Shown: in pieces, positions 2,733 through 63,440 of the stretch
Layout of the letters: every line of letters begins with the position of its first letter
How positions within the stretch are numbered: position 1 is the stretch's first letter
Sequence record: MT764206.1
DNA: 64,000 nucleotides
Direction: 5' to 3' (one strand)
Origin: Escherichia phage JEP6
The notes under the pieces: generated by a model
What the model was told of the DNA's origin: nothing
The model's input: only the letters and a program-made list of their open reading frames with translations
Database searches by the model: none
Position numbers and translations under genes: made by a program

Positions 2733-3058
2733 TTAAACCATCCTTTAATACGTTGCCACAAAGTTTTCTGTTGAGCTTTGTTAACGCCAATTGAGCGAAT
2801 AACCGGTTGAGATTCCTGGAATTCTTTATAATCAGCAAGGTAAATTTCGTAAGCTGCATCTGTAAAAGAACTTATCGCTGCCATGAAATTATTGCGAATA
2901 CCTACTGGAGCATCTTTACTTTCACGAATAATCATGTATTTACCAGTCTTAATCTTTACGATAGTTCCAAGATAAGCTCCATGATACCAGATGTCCCAAC
3001 CCTCTTGAGTAGGTTCTGCACAACGACGAAGTTCATTGACAATTTCTAACTTGTTCAT
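2729..3058 (-). CDS. hypothetical early protein (motA-adjacent)
   Basis: 109 aa ORF. Confidence 0.5.
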
Positions 3059-3068
3059 TATTTATTCC

Positions 3069-3704
3069 TCACAGTTCAGATGCTACAGTGATTACGGCTT
3101 CAATGTTTTCTGCCGAGCGTTTAATGTCAAGATACACATTACCGTTTTTAGCGATTTTACATGACATTCCGATATCAGTAAATTTCTGAATATGATGTTC
3201 CATCATTTTGTATCCAAAAATTCGCATATTTCCGTTGTTGTTAATTTCAAAATTACGAATTCCGTGAGTGCGTTTTTCTAAAATAGCAAGATAGTTACTG
3301 CGGTAAGTTTCAACCTTTTTAAGAACAAATCCATTTTCATCTAACAGTTTTAACATGAAGTCTTTATCTTCTTCCATATCAGAAGTAATCTCGCGAGCTT
3401 TACGAGTTGCTCGTTTTTTCAGCAGTTCAGGAGCATTTTCCTGTGCATATAAAGTTGCTGCATTTGAAATAATATCCTGAGCTTCACCAGTAATGATTAA
3501 TCCATCACCAGATTTCTCCACCAGGCCTTTTTTAATCAATACCCCAATATTACTATTAACTACTGCGTTACCTAAATCTGGATGCACCTCACGAACTTCT
3601 GCGGCTGTAATGAAATCTTTCTTAGCAATGGTAATTAAAATCGCAGCAGTTTTTTCATTCAGAACATCGTTAGAAGCTTTGATGATGTAAGTTACTTTAG
3701 ACAT
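3069..3704 (-). CDS. motA: middle-transcription activator MotA
   Basis: 211 aa, MSKVTYIIKASNDVLNEKTAAILITIAKKDF... matches T4 MotA. Confidence 0.85.
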   Translation of the reverse strand: MSKVTYIIKASNDVLNEKTAAILITIAKKDFITAAEVREVHPDLGNAVVNSNIGVLIKKGLVEKSGDGLIITGEAQDIISNAATLYAQENAPELLKKRATRKAREITSDMEEDKDFMLKLLDENGFVLKKVETYRSNYLAILEKRTHGIRNFEINNNGNMRIFGYKMMEHHIQKFTDIGMSCKIAKNGNVYLDIKRSAENIEAVITVASEL

Positions 3705-3829: not shown

Positions 3830-3979
3830 TTACTGCATGACTGTGATAACTATCATGATAACACGTTGAATTCCGAACGCAAGAAGACCTCCTGCTACAG
3901 CTGGAACAACACCTAAACCCGCCAGTAAAATGCCACCGGATACTAATGCAGCGCTTGTAATACCTATAAATGGACTCAT
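3830..3979 (-). CDS. small hydrophobic protein (49 aa), ATGA-coupled to gene 52 stop
   Basis: MSPFIGITSAALVSGGILLAGLGVV...; start overlaps gene 52 stop; below ORF-track size cutoff. Confidence 0.35.
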   Translation of the reverse strand: MSPFIGITSAALVSGGILLAGLGVVPAVAGGLLAFGIQRVIMIVITVMQ

Positions 3980-5304
3980 TTGATTTCCTCTAAATCTTTG
4001 GTGTATTCTGTAACTACATCAGTAGTTTTCCAATATTCATTTTCTTCTTTCTTAGCTTTAGCTTCTTCAGCAAGTTTCTTTGCTTCATCAGAAGTCATAT
4101 GAAAAATATTCATTCCAACTAGTTTATCAACATAAGAAGAATACATATCAATTTTAGAAAGTTCTTCGGTCAGTTCTTTGCGAGTTTTACCCTGCACAAC
4201 AATTTCACCTGAAATTACTTTCTTAATGAAATGTGCCTTGGCAAAGGCTAAACGAAATGCTGATTCAGTTTCTTTGATTTTGTTATCAATTCGTTTTTGG
4301 ACATAAGTTTTACGAACTTCAACGAAGTCTTTGATTAAATCAACTACGTTATCGTAAACTTGCAGCTTTCCTTTCTCATTAATAACGGTAATATTTTGGG
4401 AACGACGCTCAATCAACCCAAAGTCTTTCATAATTTTTGCATGGCGTTCTTCTTCATTATCGCTCAAAGAGTATTCTTTTCGGAATTTAACTTTGAATCC
4501 AAAACCATGCTCACCACAAGCATCATCCCATGTAATGAAGCCTTTATCTTCAAGTGGGTCTAAGATTTTACTCACATAAGTTTCACGATCATACTTATAC
4601 GGAATCTCAGTGATATGCATTTGAGTTCGTGAAGTAAACTTATATGTTCCACGAATTTCATATTGCCCATCAATTTCAACGACTTCACCGCGAAATTCTG
4701 GGAATTCTACCTTCGGTTTAGTTACTTTCTTTCCTTGAAGAGCTTGCAGTACAGCTTTCTTGACAGAAGAAACACTATGAGGAAGAATGTAAGTTGCATA
4801 ACCAGTTGCAATACCGGAAACACCATTAAGAAGAACAGTAGGAATAATAGGCAAATAGAAAGCAGGAGGAATGTGTTCTTTATCTTGATGTACCGGAGCA
4901 TATTCAGTATCTTTATATACGTTATAGAAATTTTTACTTACACGAGCAAAAATATAACGACTTGCTGCTGCTTTTTGAACGGTACGAGAACCAAAGTTTC
5001 CTTGACCATCTAACAGAGGAAAGTTATTATTCCAAGTGTTAGCCATCAAAGCACCTGCATCTTGTGCAGAGTTTTCACCATGATGATATCCAAGGTCCGC
5101 TACACCACCTGCAATAGAAGCGAGTTTGTGAAACTTATCTTTATTTCCTCGTGCCAAATCAAGAGCTCGAGCAATAACAAATCGTTGAACTGGCTTAAAT
5201 CCATCAATCATATTTGGAATAGCACGATTTTCAACCGTGTACATAGCATAAGCCAATGCTTCATTATCAATGATACTTTTTAAATCGCGATTATTCAGTT
5301 GCAT
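3976..5304 (-). CDS. 52: DNA topoisomerase II medium subunit (GyrA-like)
   Basis: 442 aa, MQLNNRDLKSIIDNEALAYAMYTVENRAIP... matches T4 gp52. Confidence 0.9.
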   Translation of the reverse strand: MQLNNRDLKSIIDNEALAYAMYTVENRAIPNMIDGFKPVQRFVIARALDLARGNKDKFHKLASIAGGVADLGYHHGENSAQDAGALMANTWNNNFPLLDGQGNFGSRTVQKAAASRYIFARVSKNFYNVYKDTEYAPVHQDKEHIPPAFYLPIIPTVLLNGVSGIATGYATYILPHSVSSVKKAVLQALQGKKVTKPKVEFPEFRGEVVEIDGQYEIRGTYKFTSRTQMHITEIPYKYDRETYVSKILDPLEDKGFITWDDACGEHGFGFKVKFRKEYSLSDNEEERHAKIMKDFGLIERRSQNITVINEKGKLQVYDNVVDLIKDFVEVRKTYVQKRIDNKIKETESAFRLAFAKAHFIKKVISGEIVVQGKTRKELTEELSKIDMYSSYVDKLVGMNIFHMTSDEAKKLAEEAKAKKEENEYWKTTDVVTEYTKDLEEIK

Positions 5305-5441
5305 AAATTTACCATACTAGTGAATGTAGTGCCATAATAACATCAGAAATGAAAAGCACGACTTGAATTAATCCGAACATTACTCCATAATATAGTGCTA
5401 CCAATAAAGCAGCAAGGGCTACCGAGTAGCCCAAGATTTTC

Positions 5442-5597
5442 TTAATCATTAGATAACAACGCAAATGTTAAATATGCACACATACCCTGGGCTAAAGCTT
5501 GTGAAAACACACTGCTAGCATCGATACAGATAGTTAAAACACATGCTACTATCCAACAAATAAATGAAATAACTCCTAATAATTTTGCGATATTCAT
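5442..5597 (-). CDS. ac: small membrane protein at the ac position
   Basis: 51 aa hydrophobic ORF MNIAKLLGVISFICWIVACVL... between stp and 52, as T4 ac. Confidence 0.45.
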   Translation of the reverse strand: MNIAKLLGVISFICWIVACVLTICIDASSVFSQALAQGMCAYLTFALLSND

Positions 5598-5604
5598 ATT
5601 TTCC

Positions 5605-5685
5605 TCACTGGCGTCCGAAGACGCCTTTGGTTTTAAGATTGTTACGATAGAACTGCATCACGTGTTCGTTGTGGAAATTACTCAT
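5605..5685 (-). CDS. stp: Stp peptide (26 aa), activator of host PrrC anticodon nuclease
   Basis: Manual translation [26 protein letters not shown], identical to T4 Stp as I recall it; TAATG overlap with ndd stop. Confidence 0.85.
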
Positions 5686-6143
5686 TAATATGCCTGCAAA
5701 ACAAATTTAAAGTTATCAGCCAACATACGGTTCATTTCTTCAAGTGTTTGATAATCAGAATGATGATTACGAGTAAACGCTAAAGCTAACTGACCTTTTC
5801 CAAATCCCGTCGTCAGAGGTTTCATCTTAGAAGCAGGTAGATAAAATACCGTGTATGGAACATTGTTATTTGCAATAGTACGCGCAAGCTGAGATCGACG
5901 CTGGCGAATATGACTTAAAACCGCACTGAATCCTTGCTTAGAACGCTGATTACCTACATAAAATCGTGCAGACACACATGGATTACTAAATGGACGACCA
6001 TCTAATTTACTCACTAAAAAGTAAAATCCAGGTTTAGATAAAATATCTTTATGCGGAGTTCCCAAAAACCATTCACCGTTCTTGATTGTACCAATAACGG
6101 TAGCGCCTGCATCATTCAGATCAGTAACAGTCATATATTTCAT
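5685..6143 (-). CDS. ndd: nucleoid disruption protein Ndd
   Basis: Start taken at [10 protein letters not shown] (SD GAGGAA upstream), about 152 aa; track ORF 5685-6191 over-extended. Confidence 0.75.
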
Positions 6144-6521: not shown

Positions 6522-6740
6522 TCATTTTACACCATTCCAAATTGTTTCAACTACGGATTTTAAACCATTTTGATGAATATCAATTCCGACAACTGCCATC
6601 AAATAGATTCCAACTACAACTGAACCCAAGGCGAAAATCAGCATGAAAATGAATAAAGCCGGAAAAATATTATCGAAAAACCATTCAATAAATGTAAAAG
6701 CACTGCGTTTACGCTTCATATTTTCCTCACATAAATCCAA
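6522..6740 (-). CDS. hypothetical membrane protein
   Basis: 72 aa, long hydrophobic segment. Confidence 0.45.
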   Translation of the reverse strand: MDLCEENMKRKRSAFTFIEWFFDNIFPALFIFMLIFALGSVVVGIYLMAVVGIDIHQNGLKSVVETIWNGVK

Positions 6741-6868: not shown

Positions 6869-6898
6869 ATAATACCACAGAGGAACAGTCTTGTAAAC
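6869..6898 (-). promoter_or_regulatory. early promoter (GTTTAC / TGGTATTAT)
   Basis: 18-nt spacing, family member. Confidence 0.5.
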
Positions 6899-7083: not shown

Positions 7084-7347
7084 TCATAGCTCAATCTCAA
7101 TGATTTCAAGATTATTTTCTTTAATAGCTTTCTTTAAATCATCGTAAATAAGAACTTCCCAAGAATTGTTTAAATCACCATTCAACAAACGCTCTTGTTG
7201 CAATTTATCAGTAAGATATGGTTGATCTGATTCATATTTAGACAATCCCAATGAAATAAATGATGTTGCATCATCAATTTCAGAATATTGTACATAAACA
7301 AATTCACCTGTGATTTTATGTTTAACATAAAAGAATTTAAATTTCAT
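7084..7347 (-). CDS. hypothetical early protein
   Basis: 87 aa, SD GGAGGAG then ATG. Confidence 0.5.
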   Translation of the reverse strand: MKFKFFYVKHKITGEFVYVQYSEIDDATSFISLGLSKYESDQPYLTDKLQQERLLNGDLNNSWEVLIYDDLKKAIKENNLEIIEIEL

Positions 7348-7374
7348 TTTTACTCCTCCGTAGCTGATAGTTGT

Positions 7375-7978: not shown

Positions 7979-8240
7979 TTAGACTTTCCTTTTTACCACT
8001 AAGATAAGCGTTATATACTTTAAGAGTACCATAATAAATTCGATCATTTTCATCTAAAGAATTATGATCAAGTTCATCGAGATTCTTTTTATCCATGACT
8101 ATAATATCATTGCAGTAAAGAAACCCAAGTTTTTCGTGACCAAACTCAAATTTATTGCAGTACACAATATTAGCGTGATGATTTCCGTGCAGTTTAATCT
8201 CTTTTATGTCGGAATCACCGATATTCATACAATAAATCAT
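7911..8240 (-). CDS. hypothetical protein overlapping denB start by 68 nt
   Basis: 109 aa, ATG with SD AAGGAAAAA. Confidence 0.4.
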   Translation of the reverse strand: MIYCMNIGDSDIKEIKLHGNHHANIVYCNKFEFGHEKLGFLYCNDIIVMDKKNLDELDHNSLDENDRIYYGTLKVYNAYLSGKKESLNAENESRFTETISDSDIYPIEQ

Positions 8241-16646: not shown

Positions 16647-17192
16647 TTAATTCAAAATAGCTACCACCGCACTACGAGGTACTACACTAAAATCTCCTGC
16701 ATGGACAACGTTCAGAAGCTCAACACCATCTTCAATCCACTGGTCTGTTACCCAACCACAGATAGGATTATCAAAAGGACGACGGATAGACACAGCAGCA
16801 CACAACAGGTCTGTAGGGTCTTGTTCTTCAACTTCTTGGAACAGGATGAACTCATCTTCATAAACCAGGTTTTTCTTTATTTTGTTATTATCTAACCGGC
16901 GACCGTGGATGACGTAAGATTTGTCAAACCACTCACTTTTGGCAAATTCTTCAACAATAAATTCGCCTTCGCCAAAAACATCAGTCAGAGTTTTATGACC
17001 AGAAATCAAGGCATTAGTTTTAATTTTAGGTTCAACCAGTTTGTAGGTTTTGCCGATTTCAATAGCGGTAGTCATAGTAGGTTCCTTAATTTCCAGTGGT
17101 TTAACAGGGCATACATAAGTGCTTACAACATCAAAATCAATCAGTTTAGCTACCGGATTCGGTGTATATTCAGGATTATAATTAAATTTCAT
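16647..17192 (-). CDS. early protein, MotB-region paralog B
   Basis: 181 aa; paralog motif GWVTDQWIEDGVELLNVV. Confidence 0.55.
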   Translation of the reverse strand: MKFNYNPEYTPNPVAKLIDFDVVSTYVCPVKPLEIKEPTMTTAIEIGKTYKLVEPKIKTNALISGHKTLTDVFGEGEFIVEEFAKSEWFDKSYVIHGRRLDNNKIKKNLVYEDEFILFQEVEEQDPTDLLCAAVSIRRPFDNPICGWVTDQWIEDGVELLNVVHAGDFSVVPRSAVVAILN

Positions 17193-17194
17193 AA

Positions 17195-17695
17195 TTATCT
17201 CATTTCAATAAAATCTACGAGTTCAACATGCGATTTGCGGAACATTACTTGGTGCCCACCAATGATAACTTCATCTTCAGGAACTTCGTATACAGCGAGA
17301 TAAAATCCTTTAGAAGATAATTCTTCCCGCTCTTCTCGTGTGAACCATCTCATCATATCATATTCACTAGCGAAAGCAAAATGATAAAGACCTATAAACC
17401 ACCCTGGAATATGATATTCTACTCCAACATAATCTTTCTTGAACTTAGTATTAATTACTATATTAGCGTTTTTAACTAATAGTTTATCTTCGTGTGGTAA
17501 AGGAATTCTTTTATTATTATCGCTATGATGCATAAAATTAGGTCTGTCATAACCTACGTGTAATAGCCACTCTTCGCTCCATGAATCTATTATACTCCTG
17601 TATGGCGTTATTTGAACACAAAGATTTCGACGTATTGTTATAGCATCTTCACAATTAAGAATACTAAAAGATGATTCAACACGATAAATTTTCAT
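17195..17695 (-). CDS. hypothetical early protein
   Basis: Start at MKIYRVESS with SD GAGGA (track start over-extended into promoter). Confidence 0.5.
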   Translation of the reverse strand: MKIYRVESSFSILNCEDAITIRRNLCVQITPYRSIIDSWSEEWLLHVGYDRPNFMHHSDNNKRIPLPHEDKLLVKNANIVINTKFKKDYVGVEYHIPGWFIGLYHFAFASEYDMMRWFTREEREELSSKGFYLAVYEVPEDEVIIGGHQVMFRKSHVELVDFIEMR

Positions 17696-25128: not shown

Positions 25129-25285
25129 ACAGGTGTATTTATAACTTACAATTTGGCGTCTTTCCAGAGTTGTTCAATAATCTCTTGGTCTATTTCTTTA
25201 GTTATTTCATTACGTAATAAGGCAGTAAGGGCTTTCGCCCTTTTCTTATTCAACTTTTTGAGTTGACGTTTATTTAATTTAGCCA

Positions 25286-25804
25286 TTAATAACCTCGGTC
25301 TTGACGAGCGAAGTTTTCAGCATTTTTCAGATAATAAAGTTTAAAGATTTCTTCAGCCGTAAGACCGAGACCTTGGAACATGTTCAGAACGAAATGAAGA
25401 ATATCAATCATTTCGAATTTAATTTCCAACTGGTCTTGTGGAGACAAATCAGTAATTAAAGTTTCACGACGTTCACCATGTTGAGCTTTCCAAGGCTTCC
25501 ATACAGCAGATGCATCTTTTTCGCCATTGCTCATACCACCAAGAGAAGTCAGAAGTTCACGGAATTCATCATCAATATAATCTTTCTGATTACGCAGCCA
25601 ATCAACAACTTCACCTGCAGTAGCCAAATCATCAGGATGACGGTTATATTCAGGTTTATCTTTAGCTAAACGAACCTGCAGAGATTTCTGCATGTCAAGC
25701 ATAACTTGCAACGGGTCTTTTTCATCACCGAGAATATCCCAGTATTCATTTTGAGCTTTATCAGCGCCTTCAATCAGTTGTGAACATTCATTAAAGTATG
25801 CCAT
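25286..25804 (-). CDS. 56: dCTPase/dCDPase/dUTPase
   Basis: Start at MAYFNEC (SD AAAGGAAAAA), about 172 aa, MazG-like. Confidence 0.8.
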   Translation of the reverse strand: MAYFNECSQLIEGADKAQNEYWDILGDEKDPLQVMLDMQKSLQVRLAKDKPEYNRHPDDLATAGEVVDWLRNQKDYIDDEFRELLTSLGGMSNGEKDASAVWKPWKAQHGERRETLITDLSPQDQLEIKFEMIDILHFVLNMFQGLGLTAEEIFKLYYLKNAENFARQDRGY

Positions 25805-32662: not shown

Positions 32663-33505
32663 TTAATCAACTGCTATTGGATGAATAGCATTAAACTTAT
32701 GAAATGCTTCTGATTTTTCTTTACGCGAAACACACATGCGAAGAACCTTTAGTGGTTCATCTTCTTCACCCAACGATTTTCGTTTTTCAATATTTGAAGT
32801 TTTCCAACGAGCTTGCTCTGGAAACTCTCTATTGATTTGCTCAAGCGCTCTATTATGTTTAGAATTACTACGAATTGAACTACACCCACCGGGAGCGTGT
32901 GATTTTCCAGATACAACTAGATATTTGAACAAGGCCAAATGCGGATAACCTTGATTAATTAAATTGAGAAATGCATACATATCTTCGCATAAATCAATTT
33001 TTCCATACCCAATTTGTTCTGTCGTAAGTTTTCCGAGGTCATACCATGTATTCGTGAATCCATATGAGTTTTCACGATAATTACCCCAAGATGAAGTAAT
33101 TTTAAAAATTGGTAGACGAGCATGACCGTGATAATACCCGCAATCCATGGCATCTTCAACGTATTGAATTAATTCATAGAACTGTTCACGAGTTAATTGA
33201 TTAATTTTATCTACACGCCGTTTATCGTCTCTCTTTCGTATTGAACTCATACGAATAGTAGTATCATCATCAATCATCCAGATTCGTTGACCTGCATACA
33301 TATCAGTAATTGCTTTACGAGTACCGGCAATTCCATTAACATCATCAGGAATAGTTACAATTTTAGCTCTAGACCCGTAAGCATCATAATAAGCTTTTTC
33401 TTCGTGTTCACGCACTACAATATGGGGTTCATAATCAGTCGGAAACATATTAAGGGCAGAAACTGCCCCTACACGCTGATAACTTGGAATTACGAATTGA
33501 ATCAT
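32663..33505 (-). CDS. putative DNA-modifying glycosyltransferase with DxD motif, not T4 beta-gt
   Basis: About 280 aa; WMIDDDT motif; occupies beta-gt locus between uvsX and 42; ATGA-coupled to gene 42 stop. Confidence 0.55.
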   Translation of the reverse strand: MIQFVIPSYQRVGAVSALNMFPTDYEPHIVVREHEEKAYYDAYGSRAKIVTIPDDVNGIAGTRKAITDMYAGQRIWMIDDDTTIRMSSIRKRDDKRRVDKINQLTREQFYELIQYVEDAMDCGYYHGHARLPIFKITSSWGNYRENSYGFTNTWYDLGKLTTEQIGYGKIDLCEDMYAFLNLINQGYPHLALFKYLVVSGKSHAPGGCSSIRSNSKHNRALEQINREFPEQARWKTSNIEKRKSLGEEDEPLKVLRMCVSRKEKSEAFHKFNAIHPIAVD

Positions 33506-34654: not shown

Positions 34655-35035
34655 TCACTTAGTCAAATTTTTTACACATGAATTATAAGAATTCACTACA
34701 TACTCCATCGGAGCATTTTTACCTGTACGCCATTGGTAATTATTAGCCCAATTTGCCCAAAGTTCTGCACAGTAGTTTTCAATTTTTTCTTCGCGTGTAA
34801 TTACATCCGAATTACGATATGCTTGAGCAGATTCATCTGGACGAATAGCTTCGTCAAAATTCGCCTGCATTTGTTCTACTGTCTGTTTTGGAGCTTCTTT
34901 ATAACACTTGACATTAGGATTATAAAATTTGCTTGAACAGTTTACAATTTTTCCTACATCAGACTGATTTACTACCGGTCCTTGAGCTACACAACCAGTA
35001 AGACCTAATGCAATAACCAAAATAGCGATTTTCAT
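34655..35035 (-). CDS. putative lipoprotein
   Basis: 126 aa, lipobox LTGC. Confidence 0.5.
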   Translation of the reverse strand: MKIAILVIALGLTGCVAQGPVVNQSDVGKIVNCSSKFYNPNVKCYKEAPKQTVEQMQANFDEAIRPDESAQAYRNSDVITREEKIENYCAELWANWANNYQWRTGKNAPMEYVVNSYNSCVKNLTK

Positions 35036-35045
35036 AATAATTTCC

Positions 35046-35315
35046 TCAAATACAAGTAGTAATTACTCCAGTAGTGCTTACACAGATATTACCTAATTGA
35101 ACACCCAGCGTTCCATTAGTATTCATATGAAGATTATCATCAATTTTTGTTGATACTTTACCATTCATGTGAATAACAGTATTAGATTCAATCACATTCT
35201 GAGTGTCATTTTCAATATCAATAAATGGAACAGCTGCTAATGCAACTAGAACAACTGCTAATGCAACTAAACACGCTGCTAAACAACCATAAACAATTTT
35301 CATTTTATTCTCCAA
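35046..35315 (-). CDS. small membrane protein
   Basis: 89 aa, N-terminal TM. Confidence 0.5.
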   Translation of the reverse strand: MENKMKIVYGCLAACLVALAVVLVALAAVPFIDIENDTQNVIESNTVIHMNGKVSTKIDDNLHMNTNGTLGVQLGNICVSTTGVITTCI

Positions 35316-40205: not shown

Positions 40206-40892
40206 TTAAAAATCGTGGGTAGAATCAGCTTCAAGAGCTACTACATAATTCGCATGTTCACCTTCAAATTTAGCAGCACCTTGTTTACCTTTTGCCCAGA
40301 GCAGAAGTTTATAATTTCCTGGTTGCATTTTCATATTTGCCATATTGATAATGAAATTAAATGTATTTTCACCATCATAATCACCAAGAGTCAAAGAATA
40401 TTTAACACGGGTCAGAGCAGAATCTTCTACTTTATTAAAACCGTTAATTACGATTTTACCTTCTTTTACCGTGATAGCAATTGTATCAATTTGCAGACCA
40501 CGAGATACACGCAACAGTTGTTGAAGGTCTTCAGCTTTAATTTCAGTAACAACAGATGCTACCGGGAATGGAATTGGTTTATTAGGAGCAACTACTGTAC
40601 TCGGATCGGCTGCTGGCCAAAAAATTGTTGAGCGAGCATCAGCAATTTTAATATTACCATCTTCTGACTGGGAAATTTCTGCATCATCATTAACTAAAGA
40701 CAGAATACCGAGAAAACCGTTCAAATCGTAAATTGCTACATCAAAATCAATAACGTCAGAAATATTTGCTTCCGCATAAGTTGTACCATTAACTGCGCGA
40801 GTCATAATAAATTGACCGGATTTAAGCATAATACCGGAGTTAATAGTAGCGAAATTTTTCAAAATATTCAGTGTATCTTTAGACAGTTTCAT
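40206..40892 (-). CDS. 45: sliding clamp
   Basis: 228 aa, T4 gp45 length. Confidence 0.9.
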   Translation of the reverse strand: MKLSKDTLNILKNFATINSGIMLKSGQFIMTRAVNGTTYAEANISDVIDFDVAIYDLNGFLGILSLVNDDAEISQSEDGNIKIADARSTIFWPAADPSTVVAPNKPIPFPVASVVTEIKAEDLQQLLRVSRGLQIDTIAITVKEGKIVINGFNKVEDSALTRVKYSLTLGDYDGENTFNFIINMANMKMQPGNYKLLLWAKGKQGAAKFEGEHANYVVALEADSTHDF

Positions 40893-44912: not shown

Positions 44913-46115
44913 TTATTTTGTAATAATGTCAAACTGTTCTTTAAAGCAGAAGCTTGAATCTTGGTGCTGATACAAAAATTCATATGCTTTTTCTCGCTCA
45001 CGGTCATAAAGAGCTCGGTCAGATGACAGTTCTTTAATACGCTCGAATGTTGATTCCATGTCATTTTCATCAAACCAAATGATACCACTATCATGCGAGG
45101 TCAAAGGAGTATTATCAACACGGAATTTTAAATTATCACCCGTTGATTTCCAAAATACCGGAATTGTACCGCAAGCACCTAATTCAAGATGAGTATATTC
45201 GAGTGAGCGTTGTAAGTATTTCTGGTTAAGTTTACTCAACTGATATCCAAAGCCAGATTTACTCATTCGTTCAAGCATTTCACTATTAATATAACAATCT
45301 AGGATTTGTGCCGGTTGATTCGGCGTGAGATTCATTTTATCAATCTCACGATTACCATAATATTCATACGGAATACCTTTTTCCTTAATTGCAATAAAAG
45401 CAGGGGAACGTTCAAGACCTTCCATTACAGTGGATTTACCAGCAGGTTTTAAGAATTTTTCGTGAAAATCAAACATCTGATAAAAACCTTTCCATGTAGT
45501 CGTACGACCAATCCAACGGTTGATGTTCATGTTAATTTCAGAAACATCTTTCCAATAAGTTGACCGAACCTTCACAATATCCATAGGAGGCTGAAAATTA
45601 TATACTGTTGGTGCTTCTTCAATATCATCAAACAGAGAAACAGTTTCTGGATACCATTCTTTCATCAGAACTTTATTAAAATCGCCATTATCAGAATGAC
45701 TAAAAATAACATCAGCTCGACGAACAGTTTCTTCTAATCCCAAATTTCGACGCAAAGAAAGCACAGAATGATCATGCTGATAAACTACAACACGAATAGA
45801 AGGTTTAATATTATCTAAAAGTTTTTTATAGTTATTAATCGTAGCTTCTTGAACGGAAGTAGCAGGAACAGAATTAATAATTAGAATATCACAATCATTT
45901 ACCAGCTTAAGTGCTTTATCGTATTCTTTAGCTAAAATAACTGGAATTGAAAATGATTTGTGGTCATGAGAACTTGTACGAGTAAATGATTTATCTTTAG
46001 CATAAACCAAAGTTACTTCATGACCATTTTTAATAAACCAATCACGCTGCTCAAGAGAAAATTTAGTTACACCGCAACCTTCAAGACCCCGAGCCAGAAA
46101 AATGCATACTTTCAT
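44913..46115 (-). CDS. a-gt: alpha-glucosyltransferase (HMC-DNA)
   Basis: 400 aa, close match to T4 alpha-gt. Confidence 0.9.
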   Translation of the reverse strand: MKVCIFLARGLEGCGVTKFSLEQRDWFIKNGHEVTLVYAKDKSFTRTSSHDHKSFSIPVILAKEYDKALKLVNDCDILIINSVPATSVQEATINNYKKLLDNIKPSIRVVVYQHDHSVLSLRRNLGLEETVRRADVIFSHSDNGDFNKVLMKEWYPETVSLFDDIEEAPTVYNFQPPMDIVKVRSTYWKDVSEINMNINRWIGRTTTWKGFYQMFDFHEKFLKPAGKSTVMEGLERSPAFIAIKEKGIPYEYYGNREIDKMNLTPNQPAQILDCYINSEMLERMSKSGFGYQLSKLNQKYLQRSLEYTHLELGACGTIPVFWKSTGDNLKFRVDNTPLTSHDSGIIWFDENDMESTFERIKELSSDRALYDREREKAYEFLYQHQDSSFCFKEQFDIITK

Positions 46116-46166
46116 TTAATATCCTCTTTGTTTTGGTTTATTTTATCAAAAAATTTATAAAGCAAT

Positions 46167-47610: not shown

Positions 47611-47688
47611 TTTCACCTCTTAGCTCAATTCATAGATCTATTATATCATAATATTTGAAGATCTATCTTAAAGCATAGAGGATATCAG

Positions 47689-47958
47689 TTATCTAAGTAA
47701 ACAGTATGCTTGGAATACTTTCTCCATCATCTTTTTAAATTCATGAATATCTATATAATGACTAGTTAAATCAGCATGATATAAAAAGTCTAAAAACTTT
47801 TCATGTGTGCTAACATATTCGCTTTCATTTAATTCAGAAACATGGCTTTCCCAATATCCAACACCAGTCTTATTTGGGAAAAATGAAATTTTCATGTATT
47901 GGTCAACATAGAAAATGCCATAATTTTCAATAGTAATAGAAATATTAATAAATTTCAT
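47689..47958 (-). CDS. hypothetical protein
   Basis: 89 aa. Confidence 0.45.
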   Translation of the reverse strand: MKFINISITIENYGIFYVDQYMKISFFPNKTGVGYWESHVSELNESEYVSTHEKFLDFLYHADLTSHYIDIHEFKKMMEKVFQAYCLLR

Positions 47959-49517: not shown

Positions 49518-49841
49518 TTAGTCTTCTATGATATCTCTATCATATCCAAGTGAAATGAGGGTTTCTTTGAAGTGTTTAATGTTCTTTTGTCTGGAATCAT
49601 TAATGAAAATGACTGGATAACGAATGTTAAGAGATGTGAATCCGGCGCGTTTAGCAAGAGATACAATCAGTGGACGATCATACTCAATCTTACCATTATT
49701 TGTAAGAACTTTATAGAAAGTAAAAGGAGCACTGAGCTCCTTTAGAAGTTTTGTAACTGATTGACATCCAGGACAACGACCTACTTCATCTGGAATTCCA
49801 TAGACTTCAATCTTATTCTTTAAGTTCGAGTTTTGTTCCAC
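49518..49841 (-). CDS. nrdH: glutaredoxin-like NrdH
   Basis: CPGC redox motif; probable GTG start with SD AAGGA (track ORF over-extended to 49970). Confidence 0.55.
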   Translation of the reverse strand: MEQNSNLKNKIEVYGIPDEVGRCPGCQSVTKLLKELSAPFTFYKVLTNNGKIEYDRPLIVSLAKRAGFTSLNIRYPVIFINDSRQKNIKHFKETLISLGYDRDIIED

Positions 49842-50124
49842 GAGAAATAATTCCTTGGTAAGCCCAATAAGGAGGATTAACAGAATCCTCGCCAGAGTTT
49901 TCTTCAGGAAAATAAACCTGGATAACGAAGCCGGATTCATCAAAGGTAAAATAAACCGTAGGCAGTTCACCTAACAAATCGGCACGAGCGTTGATTTCTT
50001 CGAGGTCTTGTTCACGTCCAGCCCAGAAGCTTGGGTTCAGACTACATTCATAGAAATAATAGTCATTACCGAACATATCAAAACCATTCCAACTCTCTAC
50101 TACATACCGCTCAAAACTAATCAT
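49813..50124 (-). CDS. hypothetical acidic protein
   Basis: 103 aa, ATG start. Confidence 0.45.
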   Translation of the reverse strand: MISFERYVVESWNGFDMFGNDYYFYECSLNPSFWAGREQDLEEINARADLLGELPTVYFTFDESGFVIQVYFPEENSGEDSVNPPYWAYQGIISRGTKLELKE

Positions 50125-50126
50125 AA

Positions 50127-50342
50127 TTAAGCCTTTTTATCAAGAACAGCATTCAGCTTGTTAGTAATTTTATCCAGACGCTCATTGAACTCACTAGAAG
50201 ATAAACCTTTTTCTGGAGAAATTAAGCTAATCACGAAAAATATAGCAATAAAAGGAATAAGGAAAATAGCTCCAACTGCCATAAACAGAAAGAATGTTAC
50301 AGTTGTAAGAAAATCAGCTAAACCTTTACGAAATTTATACAT
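50127..50342 (-). CDS. small membrane protein
   Basis: 71 aa, two hydrophobic helices. Confidence 0.5.
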   Translation of the reverse strand: MYKFRKGLADFLTTVTFFLFMAVGAIFLIPFIAIFFVISLISPEKGLSSSEFNERLDKITNKLNAVLDKKA

Positions 50343-50457: not shown

Positions 50458-50928
50458 TTAATCATGTTTCCACACCCCATCGGTATTTGACCAAAGTCGC
50501 TGATTATCTGATCCTCGCCACAACTTTTTAGTCGGAAGATTTTTCTCATACTTCCCATCAATAATAACATCAACATATTTAAGCATTTCTAGTTGTTTAA
50601 TATCTTCAAACTTATATCCTGTCCACAACCAAATGCTTTTATTGGGATAAAGATTTTTAATAGTTTGAACCACAGAGTGAATCACGTCTCTGTTATCAGG
50701 ATAAAGAGGGTCACCTCCAGTTATAGTCAATCCTTCTATATAATCATTATTCAAACATTCAATTAATTGCTCTAGTGTTTCACCAGTGAATGGAATACCA
50801 TTTCTAGCATTCCATGTTGATTTATTATAACACCCTTCGCATTTATGCAAACATCCAGTAACAAAAAGAACGGTCCTGCACCCAGGACCATTAACAAAAT
50901 CGCAAGGATAAAATCTATCATAATTCAT
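50458..50928 (-). CDS. nrdG: anaerobic RNR activase (radical SAM)
   Basis: 156 aa; CxxxCxxC-type cluster CLHKCEGCYN. Confidence 0.85.
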   Translation of the reverse strand: MNYDRFYPCDFVNGPGCRTVLFVTGCLHKCEGCYNKSTWNARNGIPFTGETLEQLIECLNNDYIEGLTITGGDPLYPDNRDVIHSVVQTIKNLYPNKSIWLWTGYKFEDIKQLEMLKYVDVIIDGKYEKNLPTKKLWRGSDNQRLWSNTDGVWKHD

Positions 50929-55366: not shown

Positions 55367-55376
55367 TTTTCACCAA

Positions 55377-55586
55377 TTAATTTCGCAATTTATTAAGTTC
55401 TTCATAATCAATCCAGGATTCTAGTCCTGATGGCAAATCAGATTCAATTTCCCAAAGAAGCTCTTCAATTTTCTGAAGACGTTCTAATTCTTCAGCTGGA
55501 ATAGTAACCATTGATGGAGCTCTTGATACGCTAATATCGTAAATCATATTTACCCCAGTTTGACCATACAATCGCCATATTTCCAT
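55377..55586 (-). CDS. hypothetical protein
   Basis: 69 aa. Confidence 0.45.
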   Translation of the reverse strand: MEIWRLYGQTGVNMIYDISVSRAPSMVTIPAEELERLQKIEELLWEIESDLPSGLESWIDYEELNKLRN

Positions 55587-55765
55587 TTAGAAATAGACTT
55601 TTCACCATTAGAATAATAAACTTCGAGTTTAGCACGGCCATTTTTAATTTGAATAACCTTTGCTGTCATCAAAGTTCCATACCCATAATAAACTGCAACC
55701 TCATCACCTACATATACCGCGCTTCCGCGGTAGTCATGGATATAATCAGTTCCTTCGAGCATCAT
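55550..55765 (-). CDS. hypothetical protein
   Basis: 71 aa. Confidence 0.45.
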   Translation of the reverse strand: MMLEGTDYIHDYRGSAVYVGDEVAVYYGYGTLMTAKVIQIKNGRAKLEVYYSNGEKSISKWKYGDCMVKLG

Positions 55766-61992: not shown

Positions 61993-62979
61993 TTATTTCA
62001 GAAGAGTAACCTCAGCGATTTCTTCCCAACCGTTTTTGTCGGTCATAATGAAGTCAGCAAGATAAAGAGCAGTACGCAGTGAAACATTACGTAAACGGTT
62101 AACATTGACTTTCATCCATGATAATGCTTTATAAGTTTCTTCATCAGAAAGACCGCGCTTTTGCATCATGTCAGTTGAAAGAATAACATCTTCAACCCTG
62201 ACCATAATTTCTTCATTAGTGTGAACACCCAAATCCAAATAAACCGAGCGGGACACTAATGCTTGTAAATGTGGAGCAAGTTTAGTACCACGGTCTAATT
62301 CGCGGTCAATGTCAACGTTTGTGATAAAAACAATCGTTCCTTTAAATTCAAACTCACGCTCAATGCCTTTTTCTTCTAAGTAAGAAGACGCAGTGCTCCA
62401 GCAGACTTTACGGGTCTCTCCAGTGTCCAGAGCGGCTTTTAGAAGATTAAGAATGTCCATATCAGAGAAAACATCCACATCATCAATCAAAAGGACAGAA
62501 TTCTCTTCACGATTATTCCAAAGCTGCTCATAAAGACCAATACCAGAGATTTTACCATTAATGCTTTTATATTCAATGTATCCAATATCATTTGCTTTAT
62601 TTAAAGCTTTATCTAAAGAATACGTTTTACCAATACCTGCTGCGCCAGAGATAATTAATGAACGAATATTTCCGTTAATAATACCATTCGTCATCATTCC
62701 CATAACATTAAATCTTTTATTAATGCGGGTTTTCATATCTTCATATGATTCTTTAACTTCTTCAACTTTTACACCATCATATGAAATATCTGATTTGTAA
62801 ACCCAAACACCGCGACGTTTACCGTCAATTTCAACAAAAACTTTACCATCTCCTTGTGCATCTACCGGAGCATTATCTGGGAACCATTCTCCTAAGAGCT
62901 CAAAAGTTCCAGAGATTTCTTTACCGAAGTAGATACCCTTATTGATAGTTACAGTTTTCATTTTATTCTCCAATTTCAC
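61993..62979 (-). CDS. P-loop NTPase of unknown function
   Basis: 328 aa; Walker A GAAGIGKT, Walker B VLLIDDVD. Confidence 0.6.
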   Translation of the reverse strand: MKLENKMKTVTINKGIYFGKEISGTFELLGEWFPDNAPVDAQGDGKVFVEIDGKRRGVWVYKSDISYDGVKVEEVKESYEDMKTRINKRFNVMGMMTNGIINGNIRSLIISGAAGIGKTYSLDKALNKANDIGYIEYKSINGKISGIGLYEQLWNNREENSVLLIDDVDVFSDMDILNLLKAALDTGETRKVCWSTASSYLEEKGIEREFEFKGTIVFITNVDIDRELDRGTKLAPHLQALVSRSVYLDLGVHTNEEIMVRVEDVILSTDMMQKRGLSDEETYKALSWMKVNVNRLRNVSLRTALYLADFIMTDKNGWEEIAEVTLLK

Positions 62980-62997
62980 ATTTGTTTTGATAGGGTA

Positions 62998-63027
62998 ATA
63001 GTATCACACTACTACCCTACTGTAAAC
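62998..63027 (-). promoter_or_regulatory. early promoter (GTTTAC / TGATACTAT)
   Basis: 18-nt spacing. Confidence 0.45.
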
Positions 63028-63030
63028 AAT

Positions 63031-63294
63031 TTATTTTAATGTTTGCCAAATTTTTACTGCTTCGCGACGAGATACTTCTACAGCTCCAAGTTCTACGGCT
63101 TTTTGGCGTCGGCGAGCATGTAAGTCATAATGTTTAATGCGTTTATCTTGAAACCAAGAACGTTTCATTCCTATTGCTTCTGCCATTTTATGAAGCTCTT
63201 CAATATCTCCATCAGTGAACATATGACAATTTTTAGTTGGATGACCGCGAAGTTTCCATCCATGATTCATTAAAACATCTACGTAAACTGTCAT
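63031..63294 (-). CDS. small conserved protein of unknown function
   Basis: 87 aa; motifs GWKLRGHPTKNCHMFTD and KRSWFQ...HYDL. Confidence 0.5.
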   Translation of the reverse strand: MTVYVDVLMNHGWKLRGHPTKNCHMFTDGDIEELHKMAEAIGMKRSWFQDKRIKHYDLHARRRQKAVELGAVEVSRREAVKIWQTLK

Positions 63295-63440
63295 TGATTC
63301 TTCTCCAAATAAGTTTCGATAATTTTCTGAGCGAGATAAACTGCATTATCTTCAGTTGCATCTTCTAAGAAACTTTCAAAACACTCTGAAATTTCTTCTG
63401 TGTCAATCAACTTTTTTACTTCAATTGGTGTAATTTTCAT
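63291..63440 (-). CDS. small acidic protein (49 aa)
   Basis: MKITPIEVKKLIDTEEISE...; ATGA-coupled. Confidence 0.35.
   Translation of the reverse strand: MKITPIEVKKLIDTEEISECFESFLEDATEDNAVYLAQKIIETYLEKNQ

Follow-up and report, generated by a model that had tools for sequence, protein, structure and literature searches.

Can a reading frame of only 26 codons be recognised as a gene from its sequence, what would its product do, and does it act together with the genes on either side of it? These questions were raised by the span from 5442 to 6143 of the window, which is the whole stretch of 64,000 nucleotides of Escherichia phage JEP6 (MT764206.1) analysed here. The span comprises exactly three genes, ac, stp and ndd. 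A first-pass annotation, made from the letters alone, had placed the T4 Stp peptide in it and had described the three genes as a host-nuclease interplay module. As judged from sequence, a 26-codon frame alone is meaningless, and its non-random status rests on the match to a known peptide and on the synonymous-only divergence from its relatives.

Identity of the reading frame

The frame lies at 5605..5685 on the minus strand and has an ATG start, 26 codons and a TGA stop. The direct comparison of its peptide with T4 Stp (NP_049878, encoded at NC_000866 165505..165585) gave 26 identical residues out of 26, which confirmed the exact match claimed earlier. At the DNA level two synonymous base differences from T4 were observed, CAC/CAT in codon 5 and ACC/ACT in codon 19. 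The Pfam profile PF08133, named 'Anticodon nuclease activator family', aligned with residues 1-26 over its positions 1-26 at 75.3 bits (E 2e-21), for a curated gathering cut-off of 25 bits, and PHROG 6763 (phrog_6763), 'activator of host PrrC lysyl-tRNA endonuclease', matched at E 4e-21. With tblastn, 422 phage records were found to encode the identical peptide (100% identity). In the list of open reading frames, the sole frame on the strand opposite stp was a 21-codon TTG frame without support.

The N-terminal 18 residues of the peptide, which are nearly invariant among T4 relatives, are intact in JEP6, including residues 4-14 where the loss-of-function missense mutations of stp cluster (PMC3014915). 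Removal of the last 8 codons reduces the activity of Stp only moderately (PMC3014915). The position of the frame is also the T-even one, after ndd and before ac and gene 52, and is syntenic with T4 165,209-166,040. The frame at 5605..5685 is almost certainly the stp gene of a close T4 relative of the genus Tequatrovirus, and it occupies its usual position within the early gene string ndd-stp-ac-52.1-52. This gene is already known: the T4 reference carries its annotation, and its genetic and biochemical characterisation goes back to the 1980s and 1990s, so detection of the peptide is unneeded to establish it as real. The 'stp' named in a Druantia preprint is the host StpA and was set aside as irrelevant to the phage peptide.

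Gene neighbourhood and expression signals

The ndd gene for the nucleoid disruption protein is located at 5685..6143 on the minus strand (PF06591 at 315.3 bits, residues 1-152 on profile 1-154; phrog_1102). Its product has 152 residues compared to 151 in T4; the two differ by an indel of one residue (KLDGRPF in JEP6, KLGGPF in T4) and by two further substitutions, G22N and E128D in T4 numbering. The stop codon TAA of ndd (5687-5685) and the ATG of stp (5685-5683) have one A in common and form a TAATG overlap at 5683..5687 on the minus strand. The overlap was present as the first-pass annotation had described it, and from it we infer that translation of stp may be coupled to that of ndd. The candidate Shine-Dalgarno sequence of stp is a weak AGG placed 7 nt upstream of the ATG, so translation of stp would depend on this putative coupling.

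Downstream of stp, the ac gene at 5442..5597 (minus strand) encodes a hydrophobic protein of 51 residues, 50 of which are identical to T4 Ac (NP_049877), with A46 here and V46 in T4. The protein matched phrog_2501 (E 5e-25), and the profile search gave no matching Pfam family for it. Its GRAVY value, 1.41, would suit a membrane protein, in accordance with the earlier reading of a 51-aa membrane frame at the ac position. The Shine-Dalgarno sequence of ac, GAGGAAAA, overlaps the stp stop codon. The next gene, 52.1 (5309..5449, minus strand), encodes a predicted membrane protein of 46 residues (DUF7396, PF24129 at 79.8 bits) with 45 of 46 residues identical to T4 gp52.1, and its ATG overlaps the 3' end of ac (ATGATTAA). 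The string ends downstream with gene 52 (3976..5304, minus strand) for the medium subunit of topoisomerase II, 441/442 identical to T4 gp52. The order ac, 52.1, 52 downstream of stp is that of T4.

The best sigma-70-like promoter candidates upstream of ndd were found at 6897..6869 and 6698..6669 on the minus strand. The motif search revealed no MotA-box-like site between stp and about 7.5 kb, nor directly upstream of ndd or stp. This predicted promoter context fits the 'delayed early' class, which is the published expression class of stp (PMC3014915). The only nearby MotA-box-like site, TGCTTTA-N-TATTAT, was seen at 5411..5387 on the minus strand, inside 52.1 and upstream of gene 52, for which it may serve as a middle promoter. 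Scans of the whole window for Rfam families, at their gathering thresholds, and for tRNAs were both negative.

Selection on the reading frame and the hairpin inside it

The effect of selection on the frame was analysed by comparison with relatives. With Ndd as query only 5 related loci were obtained, and degenerate DNA patterns were used in its place; the pattern applied to IMG/VR fixed only 11 codons of the Stp core and returned 54 loci. At 53 of these 54 loci the frame has 25-27 codons. The exception is a read-through fusion (L015, 226-450, IMGVR_UViG_3300023038_000081), in which a Kagunavirus-type stp without a stop codon is joined in frame to the downstream frame, giving a product of 74 residues. 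Over codons 1-24, the window stp and that of the Kagunavirus RP180 differ by 11 synonymous and 0 non-synonymous codon changes, and the comparison with the Kagunavirus Ro145clw copy gave 11 synonymous to 1 non-synonymous. The relatives came from protein-biased searches, which inflates the apparent conservation within the searched core, and codons 14-24 lie outside the pattern. The substitution pattern points to purifying selection on the stp frame at the protein level.

The last codons of stp contain a second element. A C(UUCG)G tetraloop hairpin with the stem arms GGCGUC and GACGCC (GGCGUCUUCGGACGCC) lies at 5610..5625 on the minus strand, in codons 21-26 (GVFGRQ). Its predicted fold has an energy of -12.2 kcal/mol with z values of -2.5 to -3.4, and when 151 nt surrounding stp were folded, this local hairpin was the only structure obtained (z -0.8). 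On the plus strand the palindrome is followed by the T-rich run TTTGGTTTTA; it meets the criteria of the terminator scan and is terminator-like, and the record NC_054916 annotates the hairpin as 'terminator'. Among the T4-type loci the hairpin is invariant and other synonymous sites there do vary. In a diverged T-even type the hairpin is retained, with a G.U pair in place of G-C or with a UUUG loop. The comparison of folds among relatives showed no hairpin in the T2-type and siphophage stp. The hairpin appears to be an additional signal, superimposed on C-terminal codons that stp can dispense with.

Alternative explanations

Three other explanations were weighed against that of a functional stp gene. 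That the frame arose by chance, or has decayed and is no longer expressed in JEP6, has a negligible probability: the frame is indeed very short and its Shine-Dalgarno sequence weak, but it is intact, it encodes a peptide identical in amino acids to the functional T4 peptide with only synonymous changes from T4, and the length of 25-27 codons is held across the 54 independent loci, unlike decay. It is very improbable, though slightly less so, that the stretch owes its conservation mainly to an RNA or DNA signal, with the hairpin GGCGTCTTCGGACGCC acting as a terminator or as an mRNA-stabilising stem-loop and the frame being incidental. The stability of the hairpin, the plus-strand match in the terminator scan, the 'terminator' feature of one GenBank record, the fixed codon choices in T4-type loci and the relative in which a G-C to G.U change keeps the stem all speak for such a signal. 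The hairpin nevertheless spans only the last 6 codons, whereas the first 18-20 codons are conserved as protein with synonymous drift, and the T2-type and siphophage genes keep the peptide without it. The missense mutations of T4 that abolish function lie at residues 4-14, and plasmid-expressed Stp is sufficient (PMC3014915), which also argues for the peptide.

The remaining explanation, that the products of ndd, stp and ac act together as one functional module against host nucleases, is the one implied by the label given in the first-pass annotation, and it is improbable as well, if less remote than the other two. The three genes are adjacent on the same strand, their overlapping or close start and stop signals suggest co-translation, and the order ndd-stp-ac is kept in most Tequatrovirus records. 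Such adjacency is, however, the normal state in the densely packed early genes of T4. The annotated functions are unrelated, Ndd being a nucleoid disruption protein and Ac a small membrane protein of acridine sensitivity, and there is no known link of ndd or ac to the Stp/PrrC axis. The linkage also breaks among the relatives. In a diverged T-even-like contig of 170 kb (L065, 4102-4348) ndd and stp are separated by a hydrophobic frame of 57 residues, which means that not all T-even relatives have the TAATG overlap; the same altered sequence stands upstream of stp in L011, and in L009, L011 and L020 the gene after stp starts differently from ac. In Kagunavirus, Tlsvirus, Nouzillyvirus and Segzyvirus stp occurs without ndd and ac, so that a three-gene linkage is not conserved wherever stp occurs. 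According to a review, plasmid-borne T4 Stp alone suffices (PMC3014915). The description as a module was therefore not upheld. Co-expression of ndd, stp and ac is likely from their adjacency and overlapping signals; a functional linkage between them is not supported by the sequence comparisons.

Comparison with T4 and other T-even phages

Local BLAST revealed that the window is collinear with T4 from about 160.2 to 168.9 kb and then from 1 to 55.9 kb, at 86-98% identity. The best 1-kb match in the phage collection was Escherichia phage ELT1 (98.7%). On these alignments the window belongs to a Tequatrovirus close to T4, and not to T4 itself. At the stp locus the window and T4 have in common the peptide, the ndd and ac flanks, the TAATG overlap and the C(UUCG)G hairpin that lies in the final codons. 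The T2-type peptide (T2 YP_010073913, 27 aa) stands at the same place after ndd and is identical to the window Stp over residues 1-18, but its C-terminus reads NFGILGFKK compared to TKGVFGRQ in the window and its gene is without the hairpin.

Elsewhere the two genomes differ. T4 has beta-gt and segA where the window has a gene for beta-glucosyl-HMC alpha-glucosyltransferase (280 aa; 32663..33505, minus strand; phrog_842, E 6e-88), and the homing-endonuclease genes segF, mobB and mobC of T4 are absent from the window. Mosaic differences from T4 were observed at 25143-25323, 46106-46131 and 50908-50928, and further mosaic segments at 7119-7357, 7992-8188, 16862-17207, 35035-35296, 47683-47944, 49817-50142, 55373-55761 and 62973-63434. 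Several of the short mosaic segments hold small frames with a PHROG family and an unknown function, for which T4 has no counterpart there.

The phage carries both alpha-gt and the beta-alpha-glucosyltransferase gene. The latter we take to be characteristic of T2 and T6, so glucosylation of the JEP6 DNA is probably T2/T6-like. The glucosyl-hydroxymethylcytosine DNA of T-even phages resists type I restriction, and a phage with glucosylated DNA therefore apparently has no need of stp as a restriction inhibitor.

Predicted action of Stp

The action of Stp has been described for T4. The peptide counteracts the restriction activity of EcoprrI and EcoR124I, which are type IC systems, and leaves their modification activity intact, and it has no effect on EcoKI and EcoBI, which are of type IA (PMC3014915). 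PrrC is latent on EcoprrI, and its activation requires Stp, GTP hydrolysis, dTTP and unmodified DNA with EcoprrI sites; the cleaved tRNALys is repaired by T4 Pnk and RNA ligase 1 (PMC3014915, PMC1484252). The role assigned to the peptide in the first-pass annotation, an inhibitor of EcoprrI and activator of PrrC, is in accordance with this literature (PMC3014915, PMC12707154, PMC12409349). In a 2025 review the molecular mechanism of EcoprrI inhibition by Stp is still given as unknown (PMC12707154).

The JEP6 peptide is expected to behave as T4 Stp because the two are identical, and the inhibition of type IC restriction and the activation of PrrC are carried over from T4 on this ground. In the proposed sequence of events, promoters upstream of ndd probably give rise to polycistronic early transcripts that include stp, and ribosomes probably start on stp at the ATG overlapping the stop codon of ndd. 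The basic peptide of 26 residues would then act on the host type IC complex (EcoprrI, and also EcoR124I) and block restriction while leaving modification in place. In a prr+ host it would thereby unmask the PrrC anticodon nuclease latent on EcoprrI, given GTP hydrolysis, dTTP and unmodified DNA, and PrrC would cut tRNALys on the 5' side of the wobble base. The T-even repair of the cut tRNALys would be the work of polynucleotide kinase/3'-phosphatase and RNA ligase 1. The genes for these enzymes, pnk (pseT) and rnlA (gene 63), were not found in the 64-kb window and lie outside it.

Stp-like peptides outside the T-even phages

Intact Stp-like frames of 25-27 codons, mostly unannotated, were found in siphophages of the genera Kagunavirus, Nouzillyvirus, Tlsvirus and Segzyvirus (L002 and L003, each at 3001-3078; L022 at 1501-1578; L023 and L024, each at 1501-1581; and L031-L071). 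Their PF08133 scores were 70 bits for Kagunavirus, 41 for Tlsvirus, 36 for Nouzillyvirus and 35 for Segzyvirus, all above the gathering score. Such frames are common in siphophages of about 40-53 kb, and the IMG/VR matches to Stp were more numerous on contigs of 31-53 kb than on T-even contigs of about 170 kb. The siphophage peptides share with T4-type Stp the core M-S-[NS]-[FWH]-H-N-E-H-[VI]-M-Q-[FLW]-Y-R and the length of 25-27 residues. They differ in that they are encoded by stand-alone small frames in unrelated genomes whose DNA is ordinary as far as known, with a strong Shine-Dalgarno sequence and divergent C-termini. In Kagunavirus the peptide has 25 residues, of which 24 are identical to T4 Stp; a promoter-like site follows the endolysin terminator, and the gene is the first frame beyond this site. 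The near identity of the Kagunavirus and T-even peptides suggests a recent horizontal transfer.

In Salmonella phage PHB07 (Tlsvirus; L023, 2766-3054) an annotated polynucleotide kinase gene was observed about 1.2 kb downstream of the Stp-like frame, which echoes the pairing of Stp with tRNA repair by Pnk in T4. A 'T4 Stp-like peptide' together with Pnk has already been noted in the T1-like phages TLS and Stevie (PMC4319613), and the present observation in siphophages extends that published remark and is not new.

Other replicons were also searched. The Stp core pattern gave 0 matches among bacterial and archaeal genomes, one per species, and thus no sign of the peptide in prophages. In the plasmid collection tblastn returned a single real match, at 40360-40434 of CP088689.1, an E. 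coli 'plasmid' of 44 kb. Its length and its type of Stp point to the genome of a Kagunavirus-like phage that was entered as a plasmid; for conjugative plasmids this search gave no evidence of Stp.

We give an even chance to the view that Stp represents a broad and largely unannotated family of peptides of 25-27 residues directed against type IC restriction, commoner in virulent siphophages with ordinary DNA than in T-even phages. For TLS and Stevie, part of this idea is already in print (PMC4319613). If it is true, a phage with glucosylated DNA would have acquired or retained stp from phages that need a restriction inhibitor, and guards of the PrrC type would be aimed at many phages besides T4.

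Annotation of stp in deposited genomes

The first-pass annotation had also considered stp too small for standard gene callers, and the deposited genomes agree with this. Among about 27 T-even records sampled from the tblastn matches, a stp coding sequence was annotated in about 4. In vB_EcoM-G28 (NC_054916) only a terminator is annotated at the position of stp, and stp, ac and 52.1 were all missed. In OQ223305 (phage EO1) and OK272473 (JLBYU31) the feature that covers the stp match bears the name 'naphthalene 1,2-dioxygenase', apparently a misannotation copied from one record to another.

The gene is thus an example of a functionally proven gene of 26 codons that falls below the common length threshold of gene callers and is omitted from most deposited T-even genomes. 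For this reason, host-range predictions relying on prr/PrrC or on type IC systems miss stp unless it is explicitly searched for. The JEP6 locus itself makes an annotation point only and adds nothing to the known biology of Stp.

Comparison with other guard systems

The logic by which Stp leads to activation of PrrC has counterparts in the triggering of PARIS by T7 Ocr and in the Ronin system; in each an abortive-infection guard senses a restriction inhibitor and shuts down translation. Ocr is a DNA mimic of 116 residues whose sequence is unrelated to Stp. Stp is by comparison a basic peptide of 26 residues with specificity for type IC systems (PMC3014915). Sensing of a restriction inhibitor by a translation-shutting guard has been described for Ocr with PARIS and for Ronin, and recent reviews regard Stp and PrrC as the archetypal case of guards that respond to anti-restriction factors (PMC12409349).
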